A DNA stretch of 64,000 bases from Patescibacteria group bacterium (GTDB taxonomy: Bacteria; Patescibacteriota; Patescibacteriia; UBA1558; GWA2-36-10). Below the pieces are notes generated by a model that was not told the DNA's origin, ran no database searches, and worked only from the letters and a program-made list of their open reading frames with translations. Numbering within the stretch: the first letter of the stretch is position 1; the number at the start of each line of letters is the position of its first letter. Of this stretch, positions 4,444 through 55,268 are shown piece after piece. Location: positions 11,602 to 75,601 of the forward strand of contig JBAYIR010000002.1 in assembly GCA_041665505.1 (NCBI GenBank), given 5' to 3'. A program made the translations under genes and the position numbers.

Positions 4444-4546
4444 TTATTATATTTTTTAAAATACATAAAGCTCGTCAAAGCCTCTTGACAATAATGTTAG
4501 AATAATATAACATAAAAATATGCTAACTAATTCTAACTAAAAAAAT

Positions 4547-5092: not shown

Positions 5093-5093
5093 A

Positions 5094-5285
5094 ATGAAAA
5101 ATAATATAAAAAAATATCGGCTAAAAATGAATCTAACTCAAGATCAATTGGCACAAAAAGTGGGTGTTAGAAGAGAAACAATTGTATTTTTAGAGCAAGG
5201 GAAATACAATCCATCGCTCAATTTAGCTCATAATATTGCCAAAATTTTTGATGTGTCAATTGATAAATTATTTCTTTTTGATTAG
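5094..5285 (+). CDS. HTH XRE-family transcriptional regulator (YozG-like)
   Basis: 63 aa; [41 protein letters not shown] is a canonical Cro/C1-type HTH. Confidence 0.8.
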
Positions 5286-5361
5286 GACTAATAGCCCAAG
5301 CATTGCTTTTTATCCACAAAACAGCTAGAATGGAAACATATTAACTAATATAAACTAATTT

Positions 5362-5877
5362 ATGGGAAACTTTAATAGAGACAGAGGTGGAGACCGACGC
5401 GGTGGCGGTGGAGGTTTTAATAGAGACAGAGGTGGAGACCGACGCGGTGGCGGTGGAGGTTTTAATAGAGACAGAGGTGATAGACCAACTATGCACAAAG
5501 CTATTTGTGATGCTTGTAAACAAAGTTGTGAAGTCCCATTTAAACCAAGTGGTGATAAACCAATATATTGCAGCGACTGTTTTAGCAAACAAGGTGGTGG
5601 CAGTGATAGACCAAGATTTGGTGGTGGCGACAGAGACAGAAGACCACGCTTTGAAGATAAAAGCGCCGGACCTAGAGATTCAGATTCCAAAGATATTTTA
5701 AAAGGTGTTAAAACCTTAAATTACAAGCTGGATGAACTGATAAAAATACTAGGTTCACAAAATACTAGAGTTTCAATAGAAACTACTAATGAAGAAGCAG
5801 CTCCTACTAAAAAAGAAGCTAAGAAAAAAGCTAGCCCCAAGAAAGTAGTCAAGAAAAAAGCTAGCAAAAAGAAATAA
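5362..5877 (+). CDS. CxxC-x17-CxxC zinc-ribbon protein with RGG/RG-rich N-terminus and lysine-rich C-terminal tail
   Basis: CDAC-(17 residues)-CSDC counted directly from the translation; N-terminal FNRDRGGDRRGGGGG repeats; C-terminal KKKASPKKVVKKKASKKK. Confidence 0.7.
   Translation: MGNFNRDRGGDRRGGGGGFNRDRGGDRRGGGGGFNRDRGDRPTMHKAICDACKQSCEVPFKPSGDKPIYCSDCFSKQGGGSDRPRFGGGDRDRRPRFEDKSAGPRDSDSKDILKGVKTLNYKLDELIKILGSQNTRVSIETTNEEAAPTKKEAKKKASPKKVVKKKASKKK
5371..5481 (+). repeat. Perfect 45-nt tandem repeat (about 2.5 copies) inside the CxxC gene
   Basis: The unit TTTAATAGAGACAGAGGTGGAGACCGACGCGGTGGCGGTGGAGGT is repeated exactly; it encodes the FNRDRGGDRRGGGGG units. Confidence 0.9.
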
Positions 5878-7545: not shown

Positions 7546-9477
7546 TTATTTATTTTGTAAGGAATCTATAAACAAACCCGGCAAAACTTTTTTTATTCTG
7601 CTTGCAAATTCTCTAGCATCTTTCAAAAATAAATCAAATTTAGGATTAGCTTTGATATTTTCATATATCATTACCTGTAATTCATCATTATAAGAAATAA
7701 AATCATGACAATGATAATCATCCATCTGGAGACCATCAAGATAAGCTTTTAATACTTCAGCAAATTTGAAATATGGATTTGCTTGAAAAATTTTCCATAA
7801 AGTCTCAATTTCACTCATGTCAGCTTTACTACCTAAATCTTTATATCTTTCCCCTATTATATCTAAAAGTGCTGGAGGTATTTCAGGTACAGTGTCTTCT
7901 TTACTAAGCATATGCACAATTCGCGTACTAAAAAATAAATTTTCTTCATCGCTAATTTTTTTATGCTTTGCTTCTACTCCAATCTGTAAACCCATTCTTG
8001 CCAACTCATCATCATTAAAATTATTTAAATCAAGTACCTGCCCAAATTTTTCTCTGGCAGCTGAAATATAATATGTTCGTTGACCTGGGTGTAATGAATC
8101 AACAGAAGCAGCCTCTAGCTTACTTTGACTTAATCTCTCCATTTTTAATAAATAATAAGATAAAACGTGTTTTATTTGTTCTCCTCTATTTGGAGCATCT
8201 GGCGGTATATCAAAAGCTATCTTATTTATAATGGGTTCCATACGTGTCAGAGTATAATCCAAACCTTCAATATTACCTGTATCAAGATCTCTTTTTGCCC
8301 AAGTCGTATCAACAATTGTAGCATTTGCCTTAGTCTCTGAAATACTAACAAAAGTATTCCAAGCATGACCTGGTGTAGCACTTTTCAGTACATCTCTATC
8401 CTCACGCCTCGGTTCATGTGTCTTGGTAGCAGTGTCATATAAACAATAAGTATCTCGTAATCTATTATATTTTGTTTGTTTGGCCTTCAAAGCCTCAAAT
8501 ACAGCTTTGGTCATACTAGCAAAATTTCTACAGACTCCATTTCCTTCCCATGCTTGATTACCTCTATTCAACAATCCTTCTTCTAATAAAGTTAAAGCAC
8601 TACTTTGATCTGCTTTAGTTTCTCTCTTAGGATCTAAATGCTGGGTGCCAGTTGTTTCAATGACATCACTATGTTTATATTTTGTAAATTCAACTACTAT
8701 TCTAGTTGCTAACTCAGCTGCCTGCCTAGGGCTAAGTGAATCCAAATGTTTAATCCCTAGTTCCTCTGCAATTTTCTGACCTTCTCTTTCTAGATATGAA
8801 GAAACAAAAGCAAAAATTTTATCTTCCCAACCATCTTCAATAATAGTTTTTTGATAAGTAGCTGCCCCCAAACTCTCTCCAGCTATTTTATCTCTCTTAA
8901 GTATATATTTTTGTATAGCTGGCGGTATTTCTCTAGCCTCTTTAGCTGGTGCTACATTTGGCCTAAAATTATCAAAATCTGAAAAAGCGATTTGTTCGGA
9001 ATCGCTAACCTGCAATTCTACAATAGGATCCTTTGTCAGGCTAGAATCATCTTCTAACATCCTCAAATAAAATTCTTTAGCCTGCTCCCAAGAAGGAAAA
9101 ACCTTTTTGGAAGTTCCTACATAATGTCCTGTTCCTAAATCTTTTAAACCAGGAAAAGTTACTACAAATTGACCACCTTCTTCATCTGCATCGATTCTAT
9201 AAAAATGTTTTGTATAACTCTTTTCTAGGGAAATTCTTTCATATCTCTCCTGCCAATCTTTTCTTGATGCTTCTATAGCCGTTTCTGCCTCCTCTCTGGT
9301 CTCAAATTGTAATAATGAAGTACCAACTATATGGCCTGTTTTAAGATCGTAAAATCCTGGCATAGCAACATCAAAACTACCATCGTTATTAGCTTCAATG
9401 TCATAAAGATGTGAAGATTTTTTTGGTCGTTTTGTCTGTTCTCCACTATCTATATTTTCTTGTACTTCGGCGCTCAT
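7546..9477 (-). CDS. Transglutaminase-like (papain-fold Cys-His-Asp) domain protein with a duplicated N-terminal ~50-aa domain
   Basis: GVCRNFA and PGHAWNTFV motifs resemble the transglutaminase-like core GxCxxFA and HAW. The N-terminus holds two homologous modules (YDIEANNDGSFDVAMPGFYDLKTGHIVGTS / YRIDADEEGGQFVVTFPGLKDLGTGHYVGTS). Confidence 0.45.
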   Translation of the reverse strand: MSAEVQENIDSGEQTKRPKKSSHLYDIEANNDGSFDVAMPGFYDLKTGHIVGTSLLQFETREEAETAIEASRKDWQERYERISLEKSYTKHFYRIDADEEGGQFVVTFPGLKDLGTGHYVGTSKKVFPSWEQAKEFYLRMLEDDSSLTKDPIVELQVSDSEQIAFSDFDNFRPNVAPAKEAREIPPAIQKYILKRDKIAGESLGAATYQKTIIEDGWEDKIFAFVSSYLEREGQKIAEELGIKHLDSLSPRQAAELATRIVVEFTKYKHSDVIETTGTQHLDPKRETKADQSSALTLLEEGLLNRGNQAWEGNGVCRNFASMTKAVFEALKAKQTKYNRLRDTYCLYDTATKTHEPRREDRDVLKSATPGHAWNTFVSISETKANATIVDTTWAKRDLDTGNIEGLDYTLTRMEPIINKIAFDIPPDAPNRGEQIKHVLSYYLLKMERLSQSKLEAASVDSLHPGQRTYYISAAREKFGQVLDLNNFNDDELARMGLQIGVEAKHKKISDEENLFFSTRIVHMLSKEDTVPEIPPALLDIIGERYKDLGSKADMSEIETLWKIFQANPYFKFAEVLKAYLDGLQMDDYHCHDFISYNDELQVMIYENIKANPKFDLFLKDAREFASRIKKVLPGLFIDSLQNK

Positions 9478-9593
9478 GATAGATAATTATAAATTAGTTA
9501 GTCAATTTTATTAATAAACTTATAATTCTATTATATCAAAAAACCGCCTAGGAGGCGATTATTTTAATCCTTAACCCCTTACGAGGAGCTAGA

Positions 9594-9835
9594 TTGACAA
9601 ATAATACAATAAAAGGTAATAATAAGCTATTAATCGTACCTTTCTAAGGTTTTAACGAATACTAAGCGTTTTGAAAGTATAAACGCAGTTTCGTAGGAAC
9701 CCCTTCTGATTGGAGGTAAGCCTTGGGACAGAGGCGACTTTACCTCATTGATACTGTGCTCCGTGGTGTGTATCGGAGTATAAATAGGCTGGATAGCAAT
9801 CGAAAGACTACTCTCCAGTCTTTTGCTTTTTAAGC
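9594..9835 (+). ncRNA. Candidate structured small RNA or cis-regulatory leader of unknown class
   Basis: GC-enriched non-coding segment. TTGACA (9594-9599) lies 17 nt upstream of TAATAA. Five consecutive hairpins follow, including the 14-bp composite ACGAAUACUAAGCGUUU...AAACGCAGUUUCGU, the GAGGTAAGCC...TTACCTC hairpin and CTCCG...CGGAG. The last hairpin (AAAGACT...AGTCTTT) is followed by TTTTGCTTTTT. There is no ORF of 12 aa or more. Confidence 0.35.
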
Positions 9836-9898
9836 TAGCTTATTTTAAAACACAATCTATGTTAGTATTATATTATAAAAAATTCCTACAATAAATTT

Positions 9899-11134
9899 AT
9901 GCATATAGCAATAATTGGTGGTGGCGCAGCTGGTATGATGGCAGCGGCTACTATAGCTGAAAACAATCCAAAAGCAAAGATTTCTTTGATTGAGAGAAAT
10001 GACTCACTGGGTAAAAAAGTTATTATCTCTGGTGGTGGCAGATGTAATGTCACAACTGGTATTGAAGATATTAAAATTGTCTTGGAAAAATATCCTCGCG
10101 GTAGTAAATTCTTAAACTCCGCTATGCACCGTTTTCCGCCAGCCCTTGTAAAAAATTGGTTTGAAGAGCACGGTGTGCCTCTAAAGTGTGAAGATGATAT
10201 GCGAGTTTTTCCAGTCTCCAATCAAGGTAAAGATATAGTCAAAGTTTTTGAAAAAATATTAGCTAAGAGTAAAAATCAAATACTATTTAAACACTCTGTC
10301 ACAAAAATTGAAAAAAAAGATAAGCAATTCATTATTCATTTTAAAGAACAAAAAGCTCTAAGTGCCGACAAAGTGATTTTGACTTTAGGCGGACAAGCTT
10401 ATAGACAGACTGGCTCAACTGGTGATGGCTACACTTTAGCTGAAAGTCTTGGACACCATATAAGTAATTTAGCTCCTAGCTTGAGCTCACTGGTCACCAA
10501 AGAGACTTGGCCTAGCGCTGTCTCTGGCTTATCATTTGTAAACAGCCAATTCAAAGCCCAAGGTGAAAAAAAATATGAATTTAGTGGGCCTTTTGTTTTT
10601 ACCCATTGGGGTATCAGTGGCCCAGCAGTTTTTGCTCTATCATCTCTGATTGCTTTTGAAAAGTTTAGCGCTGAAAAACCACTAAAAATTTATTTGGATC
10701 TCCTGCCCGATTTATCACTGGATAAAGTCCTTGAAAAAATAAAAAACTTTACTTTATCTGAACCTAAAAAAATATTCAAATACGCTATTCATCAAGCCAT
10801 ACCATTGTCTTTAGCTAGTGTCGCTTTAAAACAATTGGCTATTAGTGAAAAAAAGAAAAATAGCGAAATCAGCAAAGCCGAATTACAAAGAGTGAGCTCT
10901 TGGCTAAAAAATCTACCATTGACTATAGTCAATCGTCGAGCTGGAGACGAATTTGTCACCGCCGGTGGTGTATCTTTGACTGAGGTTAATCCTAGCACTA
11001 TGCAATCAAAAGTTTGCCCAAATCTATATTTTGCTGGGGAGATACTAGATATTGATGGCTATACTGGTGGTTTTAATTTACAAGCAGCCTGGGCTACTGG
11101 TCGCTTGGCTGGCATGGCTAGTAGTGTAAAGTAG
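9899..11134 (+). CDS. HI0933-family NAD(P)/FAD-dependent oxidoreductase (BaiN/YhiN-like flavoprotein)
   Basis: N-terminal IAIIGGGAAGMMAA dinucleotide-binding motif; GGGRCNVTT; C-terminal FAGEILDIDGYTGGFNLQAAWATG. Confidence 0.8.
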   Translation: MHIAIIGGGAAGMMAAATIAENNPKAKISLIERNDSLGKKVIISGGGRCNVTTGIEDIKIVLEKYPRGSKFLNSAMHRFPPALVKNWFEEHGVPLKCEDDMRVFPVSNQGKDIVKVFEKILAKSKNQILFKHSVTKIEKKDKQFIIHFKEQKALSADKVILTLGGQAYRQTGSTGDGYTLAESLGHHISNLAPSLSSLVTKETWPSAVSGLSFVNSQFKAQGEKKYEFSGPFVFTHWGISGPAVFALSSLIAFEKFSAEKPLKIYLDLLPDLSLDKVLEKIKNFTLSEPKKIFKYAIHQAIPLSLASVALKQLAISEKKKNSEISKAELQRVSSWLKNLPLTIVNRRAGDEFVTAGGVSLTEVNPSTMQSKVCPNLYFAGEILDIDGYTGGFNLQAAWATGRLAGMASSVK

Positions 11135-11189: not shown

Positions 11190-11684
11190 TTATAGCTTAG
11201 TTATAATCTCTAATCTTATTACACTTTCCAAATCCTCTTCTCCGTGTTTTATATGGACAATACTTAAGTTAGATTTTTTTATTATCTCATTTACAAAATT
11301 ATCTCTTTTTATTCTGCCGGCTTTTTGATGCGTCCATCCATCATATTCTATAGCTAGTACTGGCTCTAAATATTGTTTTTTAAAAATTACAAAATCTATT
11401 GTTTTTCTATTAATCTTATTTTGATAATACCAAAATCTATTCTTATCCCTAACATTCAAAATACTACTAATCACTATCTGCGGATAACAGACATATTCTG
11501 GGGGTAATAAAGTTTGTAAAATTTCAAAAAAATGCCTTTCTGGAATATTTAAAAGATATTCTTTTTTAAAATAATTATTATCGTCTTCTTTGTTAGCTTC
11601 TTCAAATTTTTCTTTTGTGCTAGCGGCTTTAATAGCTACTCCTATTATCCAAATTACTAACAATAATAAAATGATTTTTGTCAT
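11190..11684 (-). CDS. DUF2726 domain protein (PD-(D/E)xK / Vsr-like endonuclease fold) with an N-terminal TM anchor
   Basis: IDFVIFKKQYLEPVLAIEYDGWTHQ matches the DUF2726/DUF559-type D...E.DG..H core. Confidence 0.55.
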   Translation of the reverse strand: MTKIILLLLVIWIIGVAIKAASTKEKFEEANKEDDNNYFKKEYLLNIPERHFFEILQTLLPPEYVCYPQIVISSILNVRDKNRFWYYQNKINRKTIDFVIFKKQYLEPVLAIEYDGWTHQKAGRIKRDNFVNEIIKKSNLSIVHIKHGEEDLESVIRLEIITKL

Positions 11685-11790
11685 ACTTTTTTATTATGTC
11701 TCATTTTTTAATGATCTATAGGCCAACTTCTTCTCTACTATTTTTTAATCTATTTTTACTTATAACGACATAATAAAAAAGTATATAAAA

Positions 11791-12525
11791 CTAGGGTATA
11801 TAATTAATTATCTCCTTATAAAAATATCCATAACTATCCACTTTTCCTCTACCGGCAAGATCTATATAATCTTCTTTTGTTATATTACCAACAATCTTAT
11901 TACAGATATCTCGATCCTTATTATAATTAACGCCTACTGAAGCTAATATCCTTTTAACTTCATTAGCTGGCTTATTACATTGTTTTTCAGCATCAATATT
12001 TTCTAGATCTAAACCAAATTTTGTCTTTATATGATCCACTGTTAATTTTTTATTTATCTTCTCAAAAAAATTATAAAGTCCTAGAAACCAAGACTCTATT
12101 TCCATGACAGCAAAAAATATTTTTACCTTTTTTTTATATTTAAGGGTCGCTATATTATTTTTGTTGGTGAGCAACATTTCTTCTATAGCACTTTTTTTAT
12201 CCATCCTACTAGTTAAAATATTATATTCTTCAGAATACATATCTCTTAAACCTAAGATATTATTGAAACCATTATTTATTAAATTCTCTCCCCTATTTTT
12301 AATAGCAGCAAACACTTTTTTATCACCACCTACATCCATTATTTGAAAAAGAATATCTACTCTGTCATTATCATTATGAGACCATGGTACTGATTTTGAA
12401 ACTCCACTACTAAGAAGTTCTATGCATCTTATCCCTATTTTATCATTAGGCATTACCTTAAGTAAAAGATCTCTAACAAAAATCAATTCCGTTTGCCCCT
12501 CCACAAAAATAGCTATCTTTTTCAT
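11791..12525 (-). CDS. DUF4276 family protein (TOPRIM-like, OLD-nuclease-like partner of the upstream ATPase)
   Basis: N-terminal KIAIFVEGQTELIFV (TOPRIM-type Glu), IMDVGGD (DxD-like) and a C-terminal EIESW motif; 9-nt gap from the upstream ATPase. Confidence 0.55.
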   Translation of the reverse strand: MKKIAIFVEGQTELIFVRDLLLKVMPNDKIGIRCIELLSSGVSKSVPWSHNDNDRVDILFQIMDVGGDKKVFAAIKNRGENLINNGFNNILGLRDMYSEEYNILTSRMDKKSAIEEMLLTNKNNIATLKYKKKVKIFFAVMEIESWFLGLYNFFEKINKKLTVDHIKTKFGLDLENIDAEKQCNKPANEVKRILASVGVNYNKDRDICNKIVGNITKEDYIDLAGRGKVDSYGYFYKEIINYIP

Positions 12526-12534
12526 CTATGTGCA

Positions 12535-13629
12535 CTATTTATTTATAAAATTGGAGGTAAATAAATCTAGATTACTTAATCCTGAAGAATAAAACTTATC
12601 AAACTCTTCTTTATTTTTTTTATAATTATATGATTTCGTAATACTACCAACTCTATATATTATGTTCCAATATTTAACTTCAACGCTATTTATCAAAAAA
12701 TAATCATTAGAAGTAAAAATAAAATTAAACTTATATTTATCTACTTTATCAAATAAGAGTTTTAATAATTTAGACGACCTATCATAATCTAACCCCTCTG
12801 AGAGGTTATCAACTAAAAATAATTCCTCGCTAATATTATTTTGTACCATATATTGCACATAAATGATCAAAGCTAAGGCTCTATACATTCCATCGGATAA
12901 ATATTCTTGAGAAATTGGATGTTCTAATCCCTTTTCCTTCACGAATAAAAACTTAAACTCCCTTGGAATTCCTGGCAAAAATTCAGAATACATACTCTCT
13001 AAATCATATCCTAATTTGTTAAAATCTTTCACAACTTCTTTTATGGATTTTGGATTGAGCTCATTCACAATACTTGGAACAATATTTAAACTATCGAGCC
13101 TATTATTCTGTGGTAATATTATAGTTTTAGCACTAGTGTTACCAAAGTCTAAGCCATGTGTGCCTTCTGCCCAATTAATAAGTTCCTCAAGAAACGGATA
13201 CTCTTTCTCATCCCTTCTGACTTGTATTGTAAGTTTATCTACTGGAGGATTTATATCTACTTCATTACCACCAACTATTTTTATCCTAGCCTTATTCTTT
13301 GATCTAATAAGTAATGGCTCTTTATTAATATATAATTCCTCTTTATCTATCTTCCCATCCTTTATATGTAAATTATATTTAAAAATTTTGTCTTTCTCCA
13401 AAATAAATTCTGCAAACCACTCATTATCTTTAATTTTATTATAAGTGAATTCACCTCTAATAATTTTGGCCAGATTATTTATAATATTAATAATTCTAGT
13501 TTTACCACTAGCATTTTTGCCTACTAATAAAATTTTATCCCCTAATTGGAGCTCTTCTAGCTCCCAAACATTTTTCTCTTTTGAAAAATATAAGTTTTCC
13601 TTAAAACTTAATGTTTTTAATTTCATCAT
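12535..13629 (-). CDS. ABC/AAA_21-type ATPase (SMC/OLD-like), first gene of a two-gene ATPase plus TOPRIM module
   Basis: Walker A VGKNASGKT; ABC signature-like LSDGMYRALALI; Walker B-like LFLVDNLSEGLD. Confidence 0.65.
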   Translation of the reverse strand: MMKLKTLSFKENLYFSKEKNVWELEELQLGDKILLVGKNASGKTRIINIINNLAKIIRGEFTYNKIKDNEWFAEFILEKDKIFKYNLHIKDGKIDKEELYINKEPLLIRSKNKARIKIVGGNEVDINPPVDKLTIQVRRDEKEYPFLEELINWAEGTHGLDFGNTSAKTIILPQNNRLDSLNIVPSIVNELNPKSIKEVVKDFNKLGYDLESMYSEFLPGIPREFKFLFVKEKGLEHPISQEYLSDGMYRALALIIYVQYMVQNNISEELFLVDNLSEGLDYDRSSKLLKLLFDKVDKYKFNFIFTSNDYFLINSVEVKYWNIIYRVGSITKSYNYKKNKEEFDKFYSSGLSNLDLFTSNFINK

Positions 13630-16656: not shown

Positions 16657-16687
16657 ACACCCATTCGACTAGAGTGGGTGTTTTTTG
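16657..16687 (+). terminator. Rho-independent terminator, second copy of the ACACCCATTCGACTAGAGTGGGTGTTTTTTG hairpin
   Basis: Differs from the 15550 copy at 1 nt in the loop/stem. Confidence 0.6.
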
Positions 16688-16700
16688 ATATAATTGATTT

Positions 16701-17582
16701 ATGAAAATGTCTGGCAAGTATATACTAGCTACTATAATATTTACCGCCCTAACAGGTGGTGCTGTACCTGTATTTAGTAAAATAACTCTCGCCGAAATAC
16801 CACCACTTACCTTTACCTTTCTTCGTTTTGTAATAGCCACCCTTATCTTATTGCCATTTTATCTTAAAGTAAGGCAACCAATCGGAAAAGATTTTTGGAA
16901 AATATTTGGTTTATCTCTACTAGCGATGGGAAACGTTGTGTTTTTTTCTTTTGGTATCAAGCAAACCTCAGCTGGAATAGCTCAAGCCATATATACTCTA
17001 AGTCCTATACTAACGGCTATATTTGCTTACTTTATCATTAAAGAGCCTTTCAATACTAAAAAAATCACAGGTATAATACTAGGACTGGCCGGCGCGGCGT
17101 TAATTGTTTTGCTTCCATTATTAACTAATGACCTACCTATAAATTATCTAATTGGAAATATATTAATAATCATTGCTACTATCTCAATAACTATTTACAC
17201 AGTTTTATCTAAGCCTTTTCAAAGAAAATACCACCCTATAGAGATTACTACATTCTTTTCAATAACTACGGTGATAATTCTTTTTTTCTTGTCTATATTT
17301 GAACTATCAGGAAATACAAATTGGTGGCAAAATATATCATTACCTGGATTTTTAGGATTGCTATATGTGGGTTCTATTGGTACATCAATTTATTATCTAC
17401 TGACTCAATATATTATAAAACATACTAGCCCTGTATTAGCCTCAATGATTTTGTATATACAACCTTTCGCCGCTATACTATGGGCTTATTTATTTCTCAA
17501 AGAAACAATTTCTGCAATTTTTGTTATTGGAATTGTTCTGGTTTTAAGCGGAATCTGGCTGACTATAAACTCAAAAAAATAA
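16701..17582 (+). CDS. EamA/DMT-family transporter
   Basis: 293 aa, 10 TM, duplicated EamA halves. Confidence 0.7.
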   Translation: MKMSGKYILATIIFTALTGGAVPVFSKITLAEIPPLTFTFLRFVIATLILLPFYLKVRQPIGKDFWKIFGLSLLAMGNVVFFSFGIKQTSAGIAQAIYTLSPILTAIFAYFIIKEPFNTKKITGIILGLAGAALIVLLPLLTNDLPINYLIGNILIIIATISITIYTVLSKPFQRKYHPIEITTFFSITTVIILFFLSIFELSGNTNWWQNISLPGFLGLLYVGSIGTSIYYLLTQYIIKHTSPVLASMILYIQPFAAILWAYLFLKETISAIFVIGIVLVLSGIWLTINSKK

Positions 17583-31074: not shown

Positions 31075-34000
31075 TTAACCTTCTATTTCTGTTATGTATT
31101 GCCCATAAATCCAGCCACTGATTTTATCATCGACTATAACCTTATACCAATTATAGCTATCATCAGCCACACTCTGTTTTTCTACAGCCTCAAATTTATC
31201 ACCACTATTCACTTGCGTCAAGATTTTAGCACTCTTACTGGGATTTTCTCGTAGATTCAACCAACCAGTTGGCGTATCTTTAACGATCAAATAAATAACT
31301 ACTACCTCCTCCACTCCTGTACTAGTGGCAGTACTAGAACTATTTCCTCCATCAGAAAATGATAAATCAATTAACTCATTATCTATATTCCCCGAAATAA
31401 CAAAATCATCAACTGCTTCATTAGTGACTAAATCGTTGACATTAGTAACTATAGCTTTATTATCGCTAGTAGCTATTATTTTATTTTTCAAAATCATTAT
31501 TTGTGACCTTAACAGATAAGCACTAAAGACTGCCAATATAATAATTAAGACTAACCAAACTATCTTACGATTTATTTTCTGCCAAATAAATTTGGTAAAA
31601 TTAACGTTTATTTTTTCTTCTATAGCTTCTATAGCTAATTTACTCACTTTCTTTTTAGCTCTAGTAGATTTTTTTGCTTTTGCCCCACTAGAAGCTACCA
31701 GTGGTTTTGGTTCGCCGGCAATAACTGCCATATTGCTCTGCAAAGCTAACTGACCATTGGCAATATTTATCTGATGTCGCCACATGGAGAAAAGTATAGT
31801 GACTAGTAGTGCGAAGCCAGTGACAAAAGCAATGATTATACCCCAAACTGAAACTGCTTGCATACCACCAAAGGCACCCAAAAATCCTTGAGAAGCATCA
31901 GCTTGTGTAACCAAAGCTTTTAATTCTTCTAAATCTTTGTTGACGGCACTTAAACTTTCTTTGTTCTCCCGATAAGTCATTATTTTATCTTGAGGCGAGG
32001 CAGTATTTTCTTTTTGGGTACGCAAAATCTTTTCTACTCTTTCATCAACGTCATTTTTTAGTAAAAGAGCTTGGGAAGAATATTGATTTTTTTGTAATTT
32101 TTTATAAAAATCACCAGCTTGAGCTTGAGCTAAACTCAAATCATTTTCCGCTATGAGCCAAATGTCACGCATCTTGATAAATTTTTTGACTGACTCACCT
32201 GGTTTAAGTTCAATTTCACCACTAGCAAATAATGTGTCCAATTGAATATCATACTGTATATTGAAACCGCCATCATCTATAATATGCTCAGTCTTGGCCT
32301 CTTTTGGTAAATAAATCTTAAACGGCACTTTTTGGGTAATTAAAGCTGGATTGGATATCATGATATTTAAATCGACTGATCCTGATGTATACCAAGTACT
32401 GACTATTGGTGAAGCAGTCTCTTGCACTACTTGTCTTTGGACATTAGCGACAGTTTTAAAATCAGCTATCTTATTACGGACATATTTGACATCATCCATA
32501 TTTTCTCTAGATACTGATAAAATGGTGTCTAAGGTATCATTATCTAGCCGTCCCAATTTTGTATTAATACTACTTATGGAACTAGAAATAGTACCCATAG
32601 CACTAAACATTTCTTCTGGCTTAAGATTATAAACATTAGTATGATTAGTAGTGCTACTGCCTGAGCCGACTTCAATATCATTAATACTTGTTTCTAAACT
32701 AGCAATACTAGCTTCAATATTATCTAATTGCGTTTTAATCAAAGCAATATCTTCCTTAATTAAAGTTACATCATCTTTTATACCAGCTACGTCTGATTGA
32801 ATGGTGTTTATTTTAGTGACTGGTACAGCTAGCTGTTTTAATATTGTAAAAGCATCACCGTTATTTGGCGCAAAAGGCAAATCTGGTTCTAGAATAATAG
32901 CTTTGGTCGTACCATTATAATCATCTATCCGCCTAGCCACTCCGCTATTTTGACCAGAAGTAAATGTCAATAAGGCATGAGTATACAAATCATCAACTGT
33001 ACTGGCTAAGTTACTTCCTAATAATGAAAGCGTGGAGGCAATCTCAGCTGTACTGACAGTAGATCGTATAGCAATCAAATCATCCGATAATAAATCAATT
33101 GTATTTTGTAAGGTGCTAATACCACTACTCAATGTCGTCTCAGTAGATTGTAAATTTGAAAGAGTGGCTAATGATCCACTATCCAAATTGGCACCTGATA
33201 AATAGCGTCCACTATAAGCCCAAACTGAGGCAGCATCTAAAGTAGCCGCATTTGAAGTTTGTGCTAAAATTGTAAAAGTATCAGCATCAGTCGGAGCTAA
33301 AGATAAAGCTGGATCAACTGTAATAGCCTTGGTCGTACCATTGTAAGCAGTGATACGTCTGACTTGGCCAACATTCATACCCGAGGTAAATAATAAAATA
33401 TTATTTTTATAAAAATCATTAGTAGCATTGGTCAGAGCAGTAGCAAAAACTGTAGTAGAAGGAGATAAATCAGCCACTGCCGTCTCCGCTACAATCAAAG
33501 CACTAATAATTTTGTCTAATTTAGCACTATTAGCACTAATAGCATTAGATAAAACTGTTTCCGTGGCTTGAATGTCTGATAAAGTAGCTAGTGACCCAGT
33601 GTCCAAAGTAGCTCCTGATAAATAACGGCTACCATAAGACCAAATAGCCGCTGCATCCACTGCTGAATTAGCTGTTTGGGCTAAAATAGTAAAGGTATCG
33701 GCATTGCTTGGAGCACTAGCTAAGGCTGGCGAAACAGTGATTTGTTTATTGGATCCAACATAGTCTGTAATACGACGAGCCTGGCCTGCATTAACGCCAG
33801 AAGTAAAGACTAAAACTCCATTGTTATAAAAATCATTAGAAGTACTAGTTAGAGTAGTAATAAATTGTGTATCACTTGCACCAGCATCATTAACAGCTTT
33901 TTGAGCAACAATTAAATTATTTATCAAAGTATCCAGCTGAGCACTCAAAGTAGTTTCAGTGCTTTCGATGTCTGATAAAGTAGCTAGTGACCCAGTGTCC

Positions 34001-37000
34001 AAAGTAGCTCCCGATAAATAACGACTACCATAAGACCAAATAGCTGCTGGATCTAAAGAAGCATTAGCCGTAGCTGCTAAAATTGTAAAAGTATCACCAT
34101 TAGCTGGCGCGGAATTTAAAGCTGGGTTGAGTGTTAGTTGTTTGGTAGCCCCAACATAATCAGTAATACGTCTGACTTGACCCGCATTAGCACCAGAGGT
34201 AAAGACTAAAACTCCATCATTATAAAAATCATCACTAGCACTAGCTAAAGTACTAATAAATTGAGTATTAGAAGCTCCAACATCATTGACCGCTTTTTCA
34301 GCAATAATTAAAGTAGCTATAAATTGATCTAAAGTGGCTTGTAAAGCCGCTAGATCACTAGCTGAGGCGCGAGAAGAAATAGTAACGTCAATATTAGTTT
34401 TTAATAAGGTGCCAATACTATCAACAGCTGTTATAGAAGTAAGTAGTGTATCCCATACCCTCTGAGCTGTCACATCACCGGCTGTCAACTCACGACTAGA
34501 ATAAGCCCAAACCGAAGCCGCTAAAGATGCTAGACCGTCATTTTCAATATCAGTAATTGTCCTAGTGGCTGCTGACCAGACATCAGTGGCTGTCAAATTA
34601 CTAATACCACGTGAAGATATAGTAGCATCTAAATTATCAGCTATTAATTTACCGATTGACCCATTTTGTGACAAGAGAGCTGAAGCTACATCCCATACTT
34701 GTGTCGGATCATCTAAGCTTACTCCTCCGGTCAAAGTGCGGACACCATATTCCCAAACTTGTTGGGCTGACAGGTTATTTAAAGCGGCAATAGCTTCATA
34801 ATTTTGTTGAATGCGTCCAAATAAAGTATCAGCACTGGATAAATCAGAAGGTGAACCCACTAAGGTTTCTAGGGTATCAACGTAACCCTCCATCTGATCA
34901 ACATAAGCTAATACTGACTGTAAATCTTGATAAGCTGAAGTCGATTGTCCATTGTAGCCTAATTCTGTTTGGACAGAATTTATCTTATTATAGGCGTCAT
35001 CAGCTTTGTTGAAAATAGCATCAGCTGTTTGAGTACCCCATTTTTCTTGTAAAAATTTACTGCGGCCAAACAAAGTATTGGCACTGGATAAATCTGTATG
35101 TTCACCAATTCTAGTCTGGACAGTAGTCAAAGACGAAATAATATCAGCCGCACTATAGGCTCCCCAATTAGCCACAATATCATCTACTTGAGTTCTAATA
35201 TATTGAGTATCTGTATAAATATCATCCACCTTAGCCTTTATATAAGTCACATCAGCTTGCAAGGTGGCAATCTCCGCACTAGTGGCCAGTGCTCCACCGC
35301 CTGACAAAGTAGCACTAGTCAGTTTTCTATCTACATATTCCCAGACTGCTTGAGCAATTTCTGCAGCTGAAGCTCCACCACCACTAGAGCTGACGTTGGA
35401 ATATTGGCTTAATACCACGAACTCATCATTAAAAGCTGGGGCAAATGGTAAAGCTGCATCTACTGTAATGGCTTTAGTAGTACCATTATAACTAGAAATA
35501 CGACGAGAAATACCAGCATTTTGACCAGACATCATAACCACAGTTTGATTCTGATAAAAGTTTGATGTCGCTTCAGTCAAATCAGTCACAAAAGTAGTAG
35601 CTGTAGCTGCCACATCGCTGACTAAACCTCTTTTGACAGCCAAACGATCATTGAGCAACTGACCAAAAGATCCATCAATATCAGCAAATGAACCAACTTG
35701 AGCTCCCCAAATACTAGAAGCTGTGAGTCCTGTAGACAACCAAGGTGAGACTGGCTGACCAGAAGAGAAAAAGTCTAGAGTACCAGTATCTACTGTGCCT
35801 GACAAAACAGAAACGTCATCTAAATAAACAAAAGGTCGTCTGAAAAGCTGATAGTCACCAGCAGTAGCATTGACCATGGTCGTGCTCTTTAAATGTGGTG
35901 CTACTATACCTTTTAAAAATAATATAGTTGGCGTATTTTTTACTACCTCAAAAATACGACCGTAAGTATCTTTAAATAAATAGCCAACCCATTGATTGGG
36001 TGTCCAAGATTTATCTACATCTTCCACCCATGGTGGTAAATAATTACCTAATGGATTAAATATCACTTCACTACTACCCTCATCTTCCACTACAAAAGAT
36101 GACTGCGCGGATATAGTCAAATCTGCCAAAGCAGATTCTGTTGGTGTACCAGAAACTACAAACTGTTGCCATTCATTAGCTGTGTCGGCAGCAGTCCAAG
36201 TCAAATTAGCACCAGTCATACCAAGACCTGACAAAGTAACTGTTGGTAAATTACTGGATCCATAATAACTATTAACTCGAATATAGCCCGTGACCGCTAG
36301 TGGCTCATTGGCCACACCAATAACTTTGGCTGAATATTCCAAAGGCACATCTGCACTTTGCGACTCCATACGCCAAGCATAACCACCAGGTGTATGCACG
36401 GTAGTGTCAATTAGACCAGCACCAGTAGTACGCATATTACCAAAAGTACTTTGATTGACTATATCTCTGGTACTACTAGAATAATTCATACGAATATCAG
36501 TACCTGGTATAGTACTAGCCATATAAGTATCCCCCAAACGAGACATATTATTATAATCTTGGGTGCCAAAAAATACTGGGCTCAAAATCTGCGTATCCAC
36601 ACCAGTAAACTGTAATAATGATTCTGCTTCAAAAGTTACAGTATTTGGTGGCATACTAATATCTGCTTCATTCCACATACCACGTCCAAAAATACTACCA
36701 TTATCAGTCACTGATACAGAAGAATAAGAAGGATGCGAACGGATACCTGAACCATATTCAGCACCAACTGTCACTGAACCATCAGAAACATGCCCATCAA
36801 AGGTATTATCAGACATATTAACAAAAGCATTACCATGCAAACGAATACCATTGGTATTTAAAGAAAATTTATTATCATTAATAGTGACCTTGGCAACGCC
36901 GACACCAAAGTTTAGTGCTCCAGATGTTCCAGCACCAGTCACACCATTATTATAAAATTCAGAATTAGCTACAGTATATAAACGACCAGACACAAAGGTC

Positions 37001-40000
37001 GCCGCACCACCGGCTGCTGCTGGCGGGGCAGTTACATAGGCATTACGATGACCCATGAAAATACTACCGTCAATACCAACATTTTGACTAGTAAAAGCGT
37101 TATAACCAGCGCCAATATTGGCTGCTCCCACATGAGTAGTCACAAAGTAAGCACCAACCATATTTGAGCCCTGAGTTTTAGCTATGACAGTATAAGCTCT
37201 GTCAAAATAGTTATAAAAAACTGATTTAGAAATTGTCTGTGTTGGGTATGGTGTTACCGAGGTATAAGGATTAGTAGTCACAGCAAAATTATTATACTGA
37301 TTTTCCATTGACAGATGATTCAAATTCATACTGGCTAGCCCGGCTAGACCCACTGCTGATACACCAAAACCAATTCCTTGATTTACCATATTAGCTGCTG
37401 CCAAAGTTGCACCAGTGTAAGAAATATCTTCATCTGACCAAATATGCGTACTGCGCTTGAGATTCAAAACTGGTGAATAAGTCGGACTAGAGCTGGAATC
37501 CCTAGCTGCTTTATGATGATAAGTAAAATTGTGTGACCAACCAGCTAAAGTGGCCGCTGTTCCATTTTCCTCATGACCAGAACCATATTTGATACGAGCC
37601 GAAGGAGTATATTTTTCTCCAGTATTATCTACCCAAACACGAGTGCGCTCTGGATAAGTAATTACCCTAATTCTTTCATTACCAGTATCAGCACCATTGG
37701 TAAAAATCATATTAGGACTACCCCAGGCATAATCAGCCCAAACCCAACCCTCTTGGGGATTCATAGCGCTGTCAAAACTAGCTCGATAAATATTTGTGCC
37801 AATACTGGAGCCACAACCAGCTGTTGCTCCTCCAGTCCAAATAGTTGCCGGTACTGTAAAATTACCAAAATTACAAGCATCAGAAGTATCTACTTCATAA
37901 TCAAAAATATTAAACTCATCAATCGCTCCATCAAAAGCGCCATTGTACTGCCAATTATTACCAAGTCTAATTAAACCAGCATTAGCACCACGGGCCGCTA
38001 AAGTCGTACCTTGGTTAGTTTCAAAAGCTACACCATCAAGCCAAGCTCGTTTAAAAGCCGTGGCTGTTTCTCGCCAAGCTACCCGTAAATGATGCCACTC
38101 GCCAGCCGTAGCTGAGAAGGTCTGCTGTAAGACAGTGCCTTGTACTGCACCAGCATAAATAGCTACCTCTAATTTACCATTAGTATTATGTCTGACAAAC
38201 AAACGATCCGTATCACCTTGGTTAGCGTAGTCAAGTAAATATTGACCATAAGGACTAGTGGAAGTTGCCGGTGAACCAGTATAATTAGTTTTAAACCAAA
38301 GATCTATTGTGCCATGTTGCCTAGCTGTAGCTGTGCCACTCTGACCTTCTATATTATAACGAGTGGCAATCGGACTACCAGTTGTCGCCCAAGTAGGTGG
38401 CATTAAAACTGCACTACCCATACCATTGACGCCAGTCCAAGCGCCATTATTTCTCAAATAATTATTTTGTAAAAGCAACATCCGATCACCAAACTTGGTG
38501 GCTGTTGGGTTACCAGAGTTTATACGCAAAGAAATTTTACTATCTGGTGCAGTATAAGTTGTACCTGGTGTAGCTGTACCAGCTGCACCTGTGGTACTGC
38601 CTGTGACTGTATAATTACTATTAGTCGGGTTCCACTCAAAATCCCAAACTTCATATTTAGTATTAGCATCACTAGTTGTAATACCTATACTATTATCTAA
38701 ACCCTTATAGCTCTTAATAGCGGTAGAGCTAATATAAATTTTATCTCCCACTTCAGGTCTGACTGTGCCATTCCAACCACCTTTATGTTTAATAGTAAAA
38801 TTTAAATAAGAACTAGTGAAAGGCACACTGGGATAAGCATTACCTATTGGTCCAGCACTTGATCCAACTAAACGCCAATAATCAGCATCATCAAAATTAT
38901 CGGCCCAGCCATTACTAGCACTCATAGAATCAAAAATCGCTTTGGTGCCAGCACCACTGGTCGCTGATCCTACATAAACACCTGTTTTACCAGTGGTGTA
39001 AGTAGCATTAGTAGTTGTAAAATCCCAAGAGCCTGGTTCGCCAGAATTGCAATCAGTAGTAGCCCAAAATTTGACACTTAGTGCTGTGCCTGTTACATCA
39101 GCTTTTAGACAATACCAAGTACTATCACTAAAAGCTTTGGTGGTTGGTGTGCCAATTACCGTTGGTACACCAGCTAAAGTAGTATAAAGCCCTACCGTGT
39201 TGGCGGCATTGGTCTTAGTAATTAAAGCAGCATAGCCATTACCATCAATACTCTGTCTCATTAAAAATCCTAAGCGACGTGAAGTAGCATCAGCTGCCAT
39301 ATCCATATAAACTAAGCCCGAAACAGTATAGTCAGTCGTATCTACATTGGTATTTTGAATATTAAGATGAGTCAAGTTTGTCTCATTGATATTCATCTGA
39401 CCATCTTTGATATGCCAAACATAAGGAGCTGACGGCGGCACAATAGCAGCCGCAGAATATTTGTGAGTTTCTATCCAACCTGGTGAATTACCATATTCTA
39501 AAGTAAATGTTTCATTGGGATTATAGCTCAAGCCAGTGGTAATCTGTCCAAGCTTAGCTTCTTGACTACCTGAAGATACATTAAGTACCCCCGAATCAAT
39601 ACGCTCTAGACCACTCATACCAATGGGTGTATTTTGATTAACTGGCGAAGTGGTCCAAGAAGTAAAACCAGAAATTCGCACCCTCACCCAATAGGCATTA
39701 ACTCCATTGATAGTAGTTTTGGCTGGAGTGCCAGTCAAATCATAAGGCGTCCAACTTAAAATGCGACGTGGAGAATTACCATTTTCTGTGAAAAAATTAC
39801 TAGGATTAAATGATTTCCACTGTCCGCCATTGAGACGAGAAATCGTAGCTGACTGAGCTGTAGTATAGTCAGCCGTCACTGGCTCCGTAAAAGTAATAAC
39901 ACCCGCAGCGACCGCACTAATACGCCTATAGATTGGGCTAGAATCATTATCATCTATCATTACTACTTGATCAACGCCAAAGTTGGCTTGATTACCAGAT

Positions 40001-43000
40001 GTCACTGACACAGTATAAGAATTTCTAGTGGTGTTGGCAGATAATGGTACGCTATGTCCTGTACGTGTTTGATATTTATAAGCATCACGCGGTGTAAAAC
40101 TAGTCCAACCAGCCCCATTATAAAACTCCCAAGTGAATAGTGCTGAGGAGTTCATCAGCGTACCCAGATTTGCTTCCAAAGAATACATCATGTTGGTACC
40201 TTGATCACCAAAATATATAGCATCGTTTAACTCAGTATTAGCTCCATCACCAAATAAAGTCCAAGTAGTAGAACTAGCATAATTTGCCGAATACAATGGT
40301 GAACCACCATTGTAATCAGCATTATAAACATTAGTGACTGGTATAGTGCCAATTTCTGCTGTCTCAGTATTTGGTGTTGGCAAAGCATTACGACCCAAGC
40401 CGGCCAGGCCAGTCCAAACTGGGAATTGATTAATATCATCAGTGCCACCCATTCTGACAGAAGACAAATTATTATCTACTACTTGATTGGTAGCACCAGC
40501 TACTGTGATATTATCTAGTGGCTGCCAATTACCCACTACATTGTCTTTGACATCCACCCAAGTAGCTCCAGCATCAGTGGAATTATTACCCAAATAGCCA
40601 GTATCAATATTACCGTCAATATCAACAGCCAAGTCACTTTTCATAGTGCGAAAATCATCACTACCTTGACCATACAGATTGACCCTACCAGTTCTATTGT
40701 TATCTTGCGTGCCGGCATTAGTACCAGTTAGTCCTGTCATAGTATATACTCCTGCTCGCCTATCTGTACCAGTTGGTAATTCTGTCTGTGGACCCTTGGC
40801 AGCATAGGCACCTTGAGCCACTGTATAGCCAGTCACCAAAGCAGCTGTCAAAGTAATAACCGTAGAACTCTCCACTGCTGCTACAATCCTAGTAGTAGCC
40901 ACTGAGTCATTATCATCAATTATGATTGTGTCTCCTGGAGCAAAATTACTAGTGGAAGCTACAGTCAGAGTGACAGTAGCTGGCGAGTCAATAGTTAAAA
41001 GTGAAGAAGCAGCTGGTGAAACATTATCAAAATAAATATCCGCATGTGTAGAAGCTGGTAGTGGATCAGTACTATCACCAAAAGCCAAAGTAGCATCAGA
41101 ATCCAAAACAATTTTACCAGGAATAGTGATACGATAATGTTGATTAGCTGTGTCAGCAATAGTCAATTTTGAACCCGGTGTCACAAGAGCTGATACCCAA
41201 CCACCATTATAAGAATAAGCAGCAAAATTACCTCTAGTTCCAGCACCATCGCCAATAGCTGCACCATAATTACCAGTATAAGCTAGAGCCGCATCCCAAG
41301 AGCGATCAATACTGACTACATGTTGGGCTTTGTTGAGCCAGACATAATCATTGGTCAAATTTGTCGAATCAGCTGTATCAGAATTATTAGCCCCATTACC
41401 AACTATCACAATATCACCATCAGCTGGAGCATCAGTATTGGCATCACCATAAGCTACAAAGAAAATATGTCTATTAGATAAAAAAGGATAATTAGTTAGT
41501 GAGGTTGCTACAGCTTGACTCTTGGCATAAGCCAAAACCACTGAGGTAGTACGAGCTAATTGCGAATTTAAGCCAATTGGATTTTGGGTAAAATTATAAG
41601 AAGTAAAACGCAAAACATCACCATCGCTTGGTGTTCCAACATTAGATAGGTTAGCTGAAATCTCAGCTATTCTAGCCCCCTCAGCCACAGTAAAAGCAGT
41701 AGTTAAATTGGCTGCTAAAATAATAGATGGACCACTGGAAGGACAAGCTCCATCAGAAGCGTTGGTGCTGGCAATACGATGTGTCACAATTGGTGCTGTA
41801 TTATTGTCCCAAATCTGGACACTAGCTGCTGTACCAACTGCTGCTGAAAAACCGTCAATACTAGCTACACAAACACGAGTAGAGACAGCTGAATCAGCAG
41901 TCAAAGTAGTAATAGCACCTTGGACTATTCTATTTTTCCAGATAGCCTGAGCAACTGTGGCATTTTTGCTAGTAGTAAAACCAGTTGTAGTCGCGGCCGT
42001 TGTGACAATAGCTGGACCATTGCTGCAACTAGCATGAGAGTTGGTCACTGAAGCTACGGTCAAAGCCACTGTAGCTGTATCAGCATCCCATAAATTAATA
42101 GTTTGATTAATAGAAAAACCACTAGTTGAAGCTACACATAAAACAGTGCTAGCAGTAGAATCAAGAGTCAGAGTAGTCAAAGGTACACCATCATTAACCC
42201 AAGCAGCGCCCGTGCCACCAGTGGTGGGTGTAGTTAATTTATTTGTTTGCGTACCAGAGACAGTACCGGCTAAAGTCCAATTAGAATTACTAGAAGAATA
42301 AGTAGCTGTCCAATGCTCATTTTGTGTCCTTCTAACCGTTGGTAAACCCACACCAGCAGCTGAATTGGCAGCGACCATAGCAGCCGCTGTCAAGCCATTA
42401 TGTGCAGCTAAAACTTTTGGCATAGTAATAGTTGGTGCATTGACCAAGTCTATATCATTAGCACCAATAGTTCTTATTGTACCATTTACTGTCGGAAAAT
42501 CTCCATAAGGTGCATTAGCTGCCCAAGTACCAAATACTGGTGTACCAGCACCCATATTAATTATTCTAATACCATAATGGGCACCAGAGGTGACTGCTAA
42601 CTCTGGATCAAAACGAAAATCAAAAGTACCACGACCATATTGACCAGGCGCTAGATTTTCACCAGACAAACCCTTATTAAACTGTATAGCTGCTCTTCTC
42701 AAAACAACAGTATCACTCGGATAGGTATAAGCACCTTGGGTGCCAGAGACATAGTTAGAACAAGAAGTAGTACAAGTTGCTGTTGGAAAGCTCAAAAGCT
42801 CGGCTACAATATCCACATTGGATAAAGAAGTGATAGTTAAATTTTCTAAAATCAACTGTACACCACGTAAATTACCACTAGCGCTAGGCTTAAAACCAAT
42901 AAATTGAGCGGCCGCATAAGTAGCGGTTGCACCAACTGCCACATGACCCAAAGCCAAAGCTCCAGCCGCACCATCAGTCACCGATGGTCCGGGATGAATA

Positions 43001-54658: not shown

Positions 54659-54734
54659 ATTTTAACTTTACACTCAAAAACTCCTAAAATCAAGCAACAA
54701 AATATTAATAAATAAACTATTTTAATATATATAA

Positions 54735-54762
54735 TTCTAAAACTAAAATCGGCTTTCGTAAA
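54735..54762. terminator. Bidirectional terminator (12-bp stem AAAATCGGCTTT/AAAGCCGATTTT)
   Basis: Perfect hairpin with a 4-nt loop, flanked by A/T runs. Confidence 0.65.
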
Positions 54763-54780
54763 AGCCGATTTTATAATCCT

Positions 54781-54969
54781 CTAATCTAGAAGTCCTGCTA
54801 GGTGCAGGAGATAGAGAAATAGTCCACTCGAGACAATAAATATTGCCCAACCAAGGCTTAATCCGACTGGAGAACCCCACTCATCCCATCTTGATCGGCG
54901 AGATTTTCGCTCTAGCCAATACCTTTGATCGGCGGTCAAACTAAGCTTGTCGTCTTCGTTTTTATCCAT
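54781..54969 (-). CDS. Small hypothetical protein with a C-terminal TM helix
   Basis: 62-aa ORF; basic N-terminus, hydrophobic C-terminus; coding status uncertain. Confidence 0.3.
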   Translation of the reverse strand: MDKNEDDKLSLTADQRYWLERKSRRSRWDEWGSPVGLSLGWAIFIVSSGLFLYLLHLAGLLD

Positions 54970-55268
54970 AAAAAAATATAATAAAAATTTGAGTTATATT
55001 ATCCAATCGACCATTTATTTTTTGGATAATTTGGGGCTCTTGATTTTTGTTGATTGGGACCCCTTTTGTTGTCTCAAGAGCAAGACGGAGTGCAAATTCC
55101 AATATTTAATATATTAACTTATTTTTTATTTAGTAGCAAATATAGGTACAGAGGCCTCAGATTGGTCCTAGTGCATGACAAAGTATCATTATAATAACGA
55201 TAAATACATATTGACAAACGATAAATAACAGTTTAAGATACCTATATAAATAGTTTAAAGAATTAATT

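Follow-up and report, generated by a model that had tools for sequence, protein, structure and literature searches.

The 64,000-nucleotide (nt) stretch of the Patescibacteria group bacterium contig JBAYIR010000002.1 analysed here, referred to as the window, contains a 421-nt gap at positions 9478-9898. The gap separates two divergent genes: 7546-9477 on the minus strand, with a product of 643 amino acids (aa), and 9899-11134 on the plus strand, which encodes an HI0933-like flavoprotein (Pfam E=5e-82), as the initial annotation had described for the arrangement and for the plus-strand oxidoreductase. Judged by its alignments with related loci, the gap is a mosaic of a back-to-back promoter region (part A, 9478 to about 9625), a core (part B, about 9630-9831) and the promoter region of the HI0933 gene (part C, 9835-9898). 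Set beside related loci, it breaks down into a pair of conserved promoter regions of an ordinary kind and a core that is a singleton; the closest relatives found in protein databases encode flanking-gene products that are only 80-86% identical. Our favoured but tentative reading, which we place somewhat short of an even chance, is that the core encodes an orphan, lineage-specific non-coding RNA (ncRNA) of about 200 nt, transcribed on the plus strand from a TTGACA promoter. The features of the core are as follows.

9630-9831, plus strand (strand not settled): candidate ncRNA of about 200 nt, the lineage-specific GC-rich core, delimited by composition, folds and absence from relatives.
9648-9701, either strand: H1, a composite hairpin whose 20 bp (6+5+3+6) enclose a 9-nt loop; -17.6 kcal/mol on the plus and -15.9 kcal/mol on the minus strand, pair probabilities 0.7-0.99.
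9713-9746, either strand: H2, built from GAGGUAA/UUACCUC and GCCU/AGGC, with a bulge of 4 nt and a loop of 8 nt; its pairs have probabilities of 0.76-0.97.
9755-9782, either strand: H3, CUCCG/CGGAG; 9 bp with two G-U pairs and -11.5 kcal/mol on the plus strand, only 5 bp and -5.9 kcal/mol on the minus strand.
9786-9821, either strand: H4, with an 8-bp outer stem AGGCUGGA/UCCAGUCU; -12.2 kcal/mol on the plus and -15.2 kcal/mol on the minus strand.
9801-9831, plus strand: alternative terminator-like stem at 9801-9825 with -8.1 kcal/mol, after which come C and U5 (T5 at 9827-9831); found by pattern scan and folding.

Base composition sets the core apart from other non-coding DNA of the window. 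The G+C (GC) content of the core is 42-49% per 100 nt, and its best 150 nt, at 46.7%, rank at the 97.7th percentile within the window. Intergenic regions elsewhere mostly have 15-25% GC, with peaks of 15-36%, and the only ones equalling the core are one with a tRNA-Ser and one with a small open reading frame (ORF). Among non-coding DNA, then, the GC anomaly is genuine. It had at first been ascribed to the entire 420-nt segment, described as markedly GC-richer than its surroundings; this holds for the core (42-50%) and not for the gap as a whole, which at 32% lies under the window mean of 35%. On the plus strand of the core, G exceeds C. Long GC-rich intergenic regions have been used in published screens to nominate structured RNAs (Brewer et al. 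2021, PMC8632094). The candidates of that GC-rich intergenic region (GC-IGR) pipeline share with the present locus a long intergenic region in an AT-rich genome and a core far GC-richer than other intergenic DNA. A motif is accepted there, however, only after conservation and covariation have been established, whereas the core is a single sequence and halts at the first filter.

Whichever strand is folded, the four hairpins H1-H4 prove robust (pair probabilities 0.7-1.0), and their outlines refine those proposed earlier. The composite stem of 14 bp placed at 9655-9701 is part of a 20-bp hairpin spanning 9648-9701, in which those 14 bp occupy 9655-9694; the GAGGTAAGCC...TTACCTC hairpin exists, its correct position being 9713-9746 instead of 9706-9743; the CTCCG...CGGAG hairpin is found as predicted, at 9755-9782. 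Owing to G-U pairs, the plus-strand forms of H1 and H3 are stabler than the minus-strand forms, by 1.7 kcal/mol for H1 and 5.6 kcal/mol for H3, with H3 gaining four pairs, two of them G-U. The 7-bp inner stem of H4, which has two G-U pairs, is intact only on the minus strand. Folded as a whole, 9630-9834 yields -57.3 kcal/mol and z=-1.8 to -1.9 for the plus strand, and -53.5 to -55.7 kcal/mol and z=-3.75 to -4.4 for the minus strand, to be set against a background of 388 windows of 205 nt across the whole 64 kb (mean z -0.64, standard deviation 1.31). The epithet "highly structured" used by the initial annotation is too strong for these values: the minus-strand z falls within the top 1-4% of this background, and the plus-strand z is equalled by 14% of the windows. 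By these folding models the core appears only moderately more structured than chance.

At the 3' end of the plus strand, H4 overlaps the alternative stem, and the two are predicted to form in about 95% and about 4% of molecules at equilibrium. A stem followed by a U-tract had been proposed as a terminator about 65 nt before the oxidoreductase gene. The stem 9801-9825, followed by C and T5, does lie 68 nt before the ATG, with the reservation of its 4% share. Since H4 is also followed by a U-tract (UUUGCUUUUU), termination at the plus-strand 3' end stays plausible according to the fold.

The core is flanked by promoter and boundary elements, several of which recur at locus L024, which carries the 643-aa gene's closest ortholog (80% aa identity), or upstream of an HI0933 ortholog.

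9478-9529, minus strand: 5' region of the 643-aa gene (promoter scan, 47 upstream regions, alignment with L024).
9530-9538, minus strand: extended -10 box TGATATAAT with T6 before it, read from the sequence and identical in L024.
9542-9560, minus strand: terminator-like hairpin AAUCGCCU-CCU-AGGCGGUU followed by U6, with an 8-bp stem and -9.1 kcal/mol; kept with a weaker stem in L024.
9576-9595, minus strand: small hairpin, stable only on this strand (-5.9 versus -1.5 kcal/mol); a different hairpin occupies the equivalent place in L024.
9594-9623, plus strand: predicted sigma-70-type promoter TTGACA, 18 nt, AATAAT (11/12), from the promoter scan; predicted start at about 9630.
9621-9629 and 9836-9844, both strands: left arm AATAAGCTA and right arm TAGCTTATT of a 9-nt perfect inverted repeat bracketing the core; pair probability 0.3 in a minus-strand transcript.
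9835-9898, plus strand: promoter and 5' region belonging to HI0933 itself, with promoter-like sites at 9844-9874 and with TATGTTAGTATTATATTAT, which recurs with one mismatch in the ortholog L032.

Part A aligns over 9478 to about 9600 with the DNA upstream of the 643-aa ortholog at L024 (blastn, 79% over 77 nt). The intergenic region of L024 is 173 nt long and has only this section in common with the window; the core is not present there. The proximal -10 box, TATAAT at 9491-9486 on the minus strand, stands 8 nt ahead of the ATG at 9477 and fits a pattern of leaderless genes without Shine-Dalgarno (SD) sequences that pervades the window: for 47 genes, no GGAG, GAGG or AGGA occurs 20 nt or less from the start, and many of them have a TATAAT-like -10 box only 7-12 nt ahead of the ATG (examples lie upstream of 16701, 12535-13629 on the minus strand, 55773, 57442 and 7546-9477 on the minus strand). 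This suggests that translation in this Patescibacterium is mostly leaderless and SD-independent. The motif TTTTTTGATATAAT is also found ahead of the gene at 16701, where it recurs at 16680-16702. Window 9530-9568 and L024 1640-1690 have two identical stretches, 17 and 19 nt long (ATTAAAATAATCGCCTC and GCGGTTTTTTGATATAATA), which take in the hairpin, the T6 run and the extended -10 box TGATATAAT. With no more than 80% identity in the adjoining proteins, the alignment shows this non-coding site to be strongly constrained, and it could be a promoter with a hairpin or operator ahead of the 643-aa gene, which is specific to the Candidate Phyla Radiation (CPR). L024 possesses the hairpin of the 9542-9560 type although nothing upstream of it there needs terminating. 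A second terminator-like minus-strand hairpin noted earlier at 9538-9560 is present, as a hairpin at 9542-9560 followed by T6; by the L024 alignment it is a piece of the 643-aa gene's conserved promoter DNA and not of the candidate element.

The plus-strand promoter at the border of parts A and B is a consensus match and in this sense predicted. Its TTGACA box lies at 9594-9599 as first described; the 17-nt spacer and TAATAA box given with it are superseded in the scan by an 18-nt spacer and AATAAT at 9618-9623 (11/12). The equivalent position of L024 carries TTGACA, 17 nt and TAATAT, driving a divergent gene for a 172-aa product. Other intergenic TTGACA sites of the window include plausible gene promoters at 4485 and 55211. 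In the gap 5093-5361, inspection by eye reveals a small XRE-type helix-turn-helix ORF at about 5100-5300 on the plus strand, and the minus-strand TTGACA of that gap falls within the ORF.

Part C aligns with the DNA that immediately precedes the HI0933 gene in orthologous loci, and L032 shares TATGTTAGTATTATATTAT with the window apart from one mismatch. The orthologs have the terminator hairpin of the preceding gene at the position taken in the window by the hairpin 9801-9825. Part B has no counterpart upstream of five HI0933 orthologs (86, 84, 83, 81 and 78% identity), where the upstream gap is only about 65-120 nt and mostly follows a zf_Tbcl_2 gene; in two further orthologs, at 71 and 66% identity, the upstream gene stops about 25 nt ahead and there is likewise no segment. 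A comparison of orthologous intergenic regions, suggested earlier as a check on the element, therefore has nothing to align in the core, which is absent from all relatives compared. This absence means that part B is not a conserved leader as far as these loci go, yet it may still be a young RNA gene.

These comparisons bear directly on the proposal that the segment is a riboregulatory leader. A cis-regulatory leader of HI0933, resembling a riboswitch or an attenuator with H1-H3 as sensor and H4 or the terminator deciding on read-through, would suit the same-strand order of promoter, structured region, hairpin with U-tract and, 68 nt on, the gene, and also the two mutually exclusive 3' hairpins at 9786-9821 and 9801-9825. 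The segment is nevertheless found in none of the seven HI0933 orthologs (66-86% identity), and a HI0933 promoter of the type seen in orthologs is kept downstream of it. No riboswitch or leader family is matched, and U-tracts follow both alternative hairpins, which weakens the logic of a switch. The leader proposed at the outset is for these reasons not supported, and we consider this role very improbable. Terminating riboswitches and leaders share with the locus a promoter, a multi-hairpin domain, a terminator-like hairpin and a downstream gene on the same strand, and differ from it in that the core is not conserved upstream of orthologs, belongs to no known aptamer family and precedes a gene with its own promoter. 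Two related candidates were rejected. A terminator/antiterminator switch fails because both hairpins precede U-tracts and because the P1 helix, which one minimum free energy (MFE) fold shows, is located ahead of the predicted transcript start. A conserved leader of the 643-aa gene is contradicted by L024, which has only 9478 to about 9600, and by loci L025-L028, where the gene directly follows an ATPase gene.

The orientation of a possible transcript can be weighed from the same features. An RNA of about 330 nt on the minus strand would start at a T-tract and TATAAT (-10 box at 9877-9872), pass through H4-H1 and end at the hairpin 9560-9542 and its U6, just upstream of the promoters of the 643-aa gene. 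It would have the more unusual fold (z=-3.6 to -4.4 versus -1.8 to -2.8), would contain the inner stem of H4 and the hairpin 9576-9595, both confined to that strand, and would finish in a canonical terminator of 8 bp and U6. The T-tract and TATAAT (9883-9872) resemble other promoters of the window, and the 9-nt inverted repeat would close the domain as a 9-bp helix (9844-9836/9629-9621). Against this, the terminator hairpin is kept in L024 without such an RNA upstream and is consequently not evidence for a transcript, while the -10 box sits in an AT-rich near-palindrome that is promoter-like on both strands. The RNA would moreover be C- and A-rich, which in our view is unusual for structured RNAs, H3 would lose four of its nine pairs, and the closing helix has a probability of about 0.3 and a chance-level length, about 1.6 such 9-nt inverted-repeat pairs being expected by chance in our estimate. 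A minus-strand RNA of this kind is rather unlikely. For the strand of an RNA taken by itself, our estimate leans somewhat towards plus, because of the conserved near-consensus promoter, the excess of G over C, the stronger H1 and H3, the slightly lower MFE and the 3' hairpin with its U-tract.

The gene order around the gap gives rise to a different explanation. At L029, at L031 and in the contig of the HI0933 ortholog P0124, the order is zf_Tbcl_2, terminator and HI0933, with about 65-120 nt between the genes. The zf_Tbcl_2 homolog of the window lies at 5362-5877, separated from HI0933 by a block of about 4 kb that consists of the gap and three minus-strand genes, namely an EamA gene, a LigT-like gene of the 2'-5' RNA ligase family and the gene for the 643-aa protein. 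Since zf_Tbcl_2 and HI0933 are adjacent in relatives and apart here, the core sits at a synteny breakpoint. It may accordingly be non-functional rearrangement debris, a leftover or foreign fragment trapped when the block came between the two genes, with hairpins that are incidental whether or not they are transcribed. The broken adjacency agrees with this explanation, as do the occurrence in L024 of part A without part B, the lack of a homolog in the sets searched and the ordinary plus-strand z; a GC content of 46.7% is, in addition, also found in coding DNA of this genome. On the other side, no protein or DNA similarity to any source gene is detected, and decaying DNA in a genome of 35% GC is expected to drift towards AT, most other intergenic regions having 15-25%. 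Debris would also have to carry by accident four robust hairpins, a minus-strand z in the top 1-4%, and a promoter and a hairpin with U-tract that neatly frame the segment. We hold debris to be doubtful but nearly as likely as a small RNA.

Searches for known families and for homologs of the core return nothing beyond noise. In Rfam 15, no family reaches its gathering score in the gap, and a threshold of E<=10 adds only noise, the best match being AaHKsRNA82, which at 24.8 bits falls short of its gathering score of 51.4 and aligns only the 9542-9560 hairpin; ARAGORN detects no tRNA or tmRNA in the gap. The earlier failure to match the segment to tmRNA, RNase P, signal recognition particle RNA, 6S RNA or riboswitches is borne out by these scans. 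The core has no relative by blastn among plasmids and phages or in three scans of viral contigs, and a six-pattern back-translation scan of metagenome contigs yields none that is confirmed among the matches listed, at least 600 in number. A search of metagenome contigs for the H2 stem pattern produces two chance matches, L033 and L034. When the window and 15 loci were scanned with a covariance model of H1-H3, the segment itself was the only match, and blastn among all loci reveals no second copy of the core in the window or related loci. The minus strand of H2 resembles by eye the CR-I/CR-V elements of RNase P (GAGGUAAAGUCG...GGCUUAC); this candidate was rejected, as the two motifs pair in a local 34-nt hairpin and not in a long-range P4 helix, and none of the RNase P models gives a score. 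A mobile insertion of the miniature inverted-repeat transposable element (MITE) type was rejected as well. MITE-like insertions recall the core as a segment of about 200 nt restricted to one lineage with a 9-nt inverted repeat at its borders, and are unlike it in that the repeat, and equally a 7-nt direct repeat (TAAGCTA, 9623 and 9831), is of chance length, no target-site duplication is convincing, and no second copy exists in the window or related loci. A Patescibacteria-specific structured RNA, sampled here for the first time, would present the same picture if its relatives are unsampled or too diverged for exact-word searches. It might act through a ligand- or protein-responsive H1-H3 that gates read-through into HI0933, or in trans in a manner suited to leaderless mRNAs without SD sequences; we regard such a class as improbable.

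Coding potential was evaluated on both strands. The statement that the segment holds no ORF above about 12 aa does not hold, for a 36-aa ORF with a TTG start runs at 9723-9833 on the plus strand and an open frame of 69 codons without a start codon at 9633-9839 on the minus strand; inspection by eye finds no ATG on the plus strand of 9630-9835. Both frames score below 99.6% of real in-frame gene windows in codon usage, and Pfam gives nothing significant for the open frames of the core. A small protein from the TTG ORF could be argued from the presence of the ORF, from an SD-like GGAGG at 9712-9716 that ends 6 nt ahead of the TTG, and from a stop codon falling in the terminator U-tract. The lack of SD use in the window, however, implies that GGAGG is not a ribosome-binding site (0 of the 47 genes have an SD sequence), and the ORF, besides its codon score and lack of a Pfam match, has CTC/CTG codons for Leu and six uncommon codons (CGA, CGG, AGG) for Arg, and it spans three stable hairpins. 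That the core encodes this protein is scarcely credible, and the ORF was rejected as a gene on its codon score, its choice of uncommon codons for Arg and Leu, and the SD-free starts of the 47 genes. The 69-codon frame was rejected as a gene remnant for its poor codon usage and lack of a true protein homolog. Four "hits" obtained for it in an exhaustive HMMER search among 1.84 billion representatives, with E down to 2e-13, were rejected as artefacts, because the score sums repeat stretches that each contribute at most 8.5 bits. Among the four, P0241 is apparently a translated tandem DNA repeat and P0242-P0244 look like CRISPR-array-like repeats, sequences that give misleadingly small E-values with short queries. 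Searches by tblastn and tblastx with genes neighbouring the orthologs (zf_Tbcl_2, the 172-aa 3D-domain protein and YbjQ) find no trace of them in the gap.

We return to the plus-strand ncRNA as our favoured, tentative reading. The promoter at 9594-9623 would have lost its original downstream gene through rearrangement, and the orphaned promoter would then transcribe part B into an ncRNA of about 200 nt with the four hairpins H1-H4. The transcript would end at the last hairpin and U-tract (about 9821-9831), 68 nt ahead of HI0933, which would be expressed from its own promoter. Such an RNA may act in trans, or may simply be a terminator-capped transcript that shields HI0933 from read-through out of the orphaned promoter. 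In favour of a small RNA, the segment has its own predicted promoter (11/12), whose -35 box and position are kept in L024. The proposal of a candidate small RNA (sRNA) made at the outset accordingly retains the near-consensus promoter, the roughly 200 nt of non-coding sequence with hairpins and the end in a hairpin with U-tract, and is qualified by the lack of a homolog and by a plus-strand fold at background level.

Several observations weigh against the favoured reading. No homolog of the core was found in any searchable set, and even in the nearest relatives the flanking proteins reach no more than 80-86% identity. The plus-strand z, equalled by 14% of the 388 background windows, is not above the genomic background, whereas the minus-strand z is better and is equalled by only 1-4% of them; H4 and the 9576-9595 hairpin likewise favour the minus strand. 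The segment lies exactly at the synteny breakpoint, where non-functional leftover DNA is plausible. The features that would support a function are those of a single sequence. Orphan sRNAs with a sigma-70 promoter and a Rho-independent terminator are a class found via promoter and terminator scans of enterobacterial intergenic regions. The candidate is like them in its stand-alone predicted promoter, about 200 nt of non-coding sequence, several hairpins, the hairpin and U-tract at the end and the divergent flanking genes; it is unlike them in having no homolog in the sets searched and no known chaperone or target, in a host whose mRNAs appear mostly leaderless and without SD sequences, and in being a candidate predicted from sequence.

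The neighbourhood shows further features. The 643-aa protein was initially called transglutaminase-like, which is unsupported: it has no Pfam match at E<=5 and no match at E<=1 in a PDB sequence search. Its family, with at least 140 proteins at E<=0.001, is named in databases only from Patescibacteria, and its N-terminus displays by eye two HicB-like repeats. In loci L025-L028 the homolog of the gene lies directly 3' of a DUF87/TrwB-type ATPase gene. Two more contigs encode the same HI0933 protein. Downstream of HI0933, a defence-like trio at 11190-13629 lies before BipA, comprising DUF2726 (11190-11684), DUF4276 (11791-12525) and an AAA_21 ATPase (12535-13629); the contig of the ortholog P0124 has just one small gene between HI0933 and BipA. 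A single ORF of 4283 aa occupies 31075-43926 on the minus strand. A second long and partly GC-rich intergenic region, with a maximum of 51% in 100 nt, is located at 54659-55268. It contains an ATG ORF of 62 aa at 54781-54969 on the minus strand, the C-terminal half of which is hydrophobic by eye, beside a 13-bp terminator hairpin at about 54745-54774, and its stretch 55000-55200 gives Rfam noise only.

The core is a low-priority candidate on present sequence comparisons and is not to be annotated as an RNA gene. The present value of the locus is mostly methodological, in that it combines a real GC-rich intergenic signal with a core that is nevertheless a singleton. To our knowledge, very few regulatory RNAs have been described from Patescibacteria (CPR). 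With genes of the window lacking SD sequences and many of them seemingly leaderless, the textbook mode of sRNA action by occlusion of the ribosome-binding site may not apply in this organism, and a validated small RNA at this locus, if it is one, would be a useful entry point.

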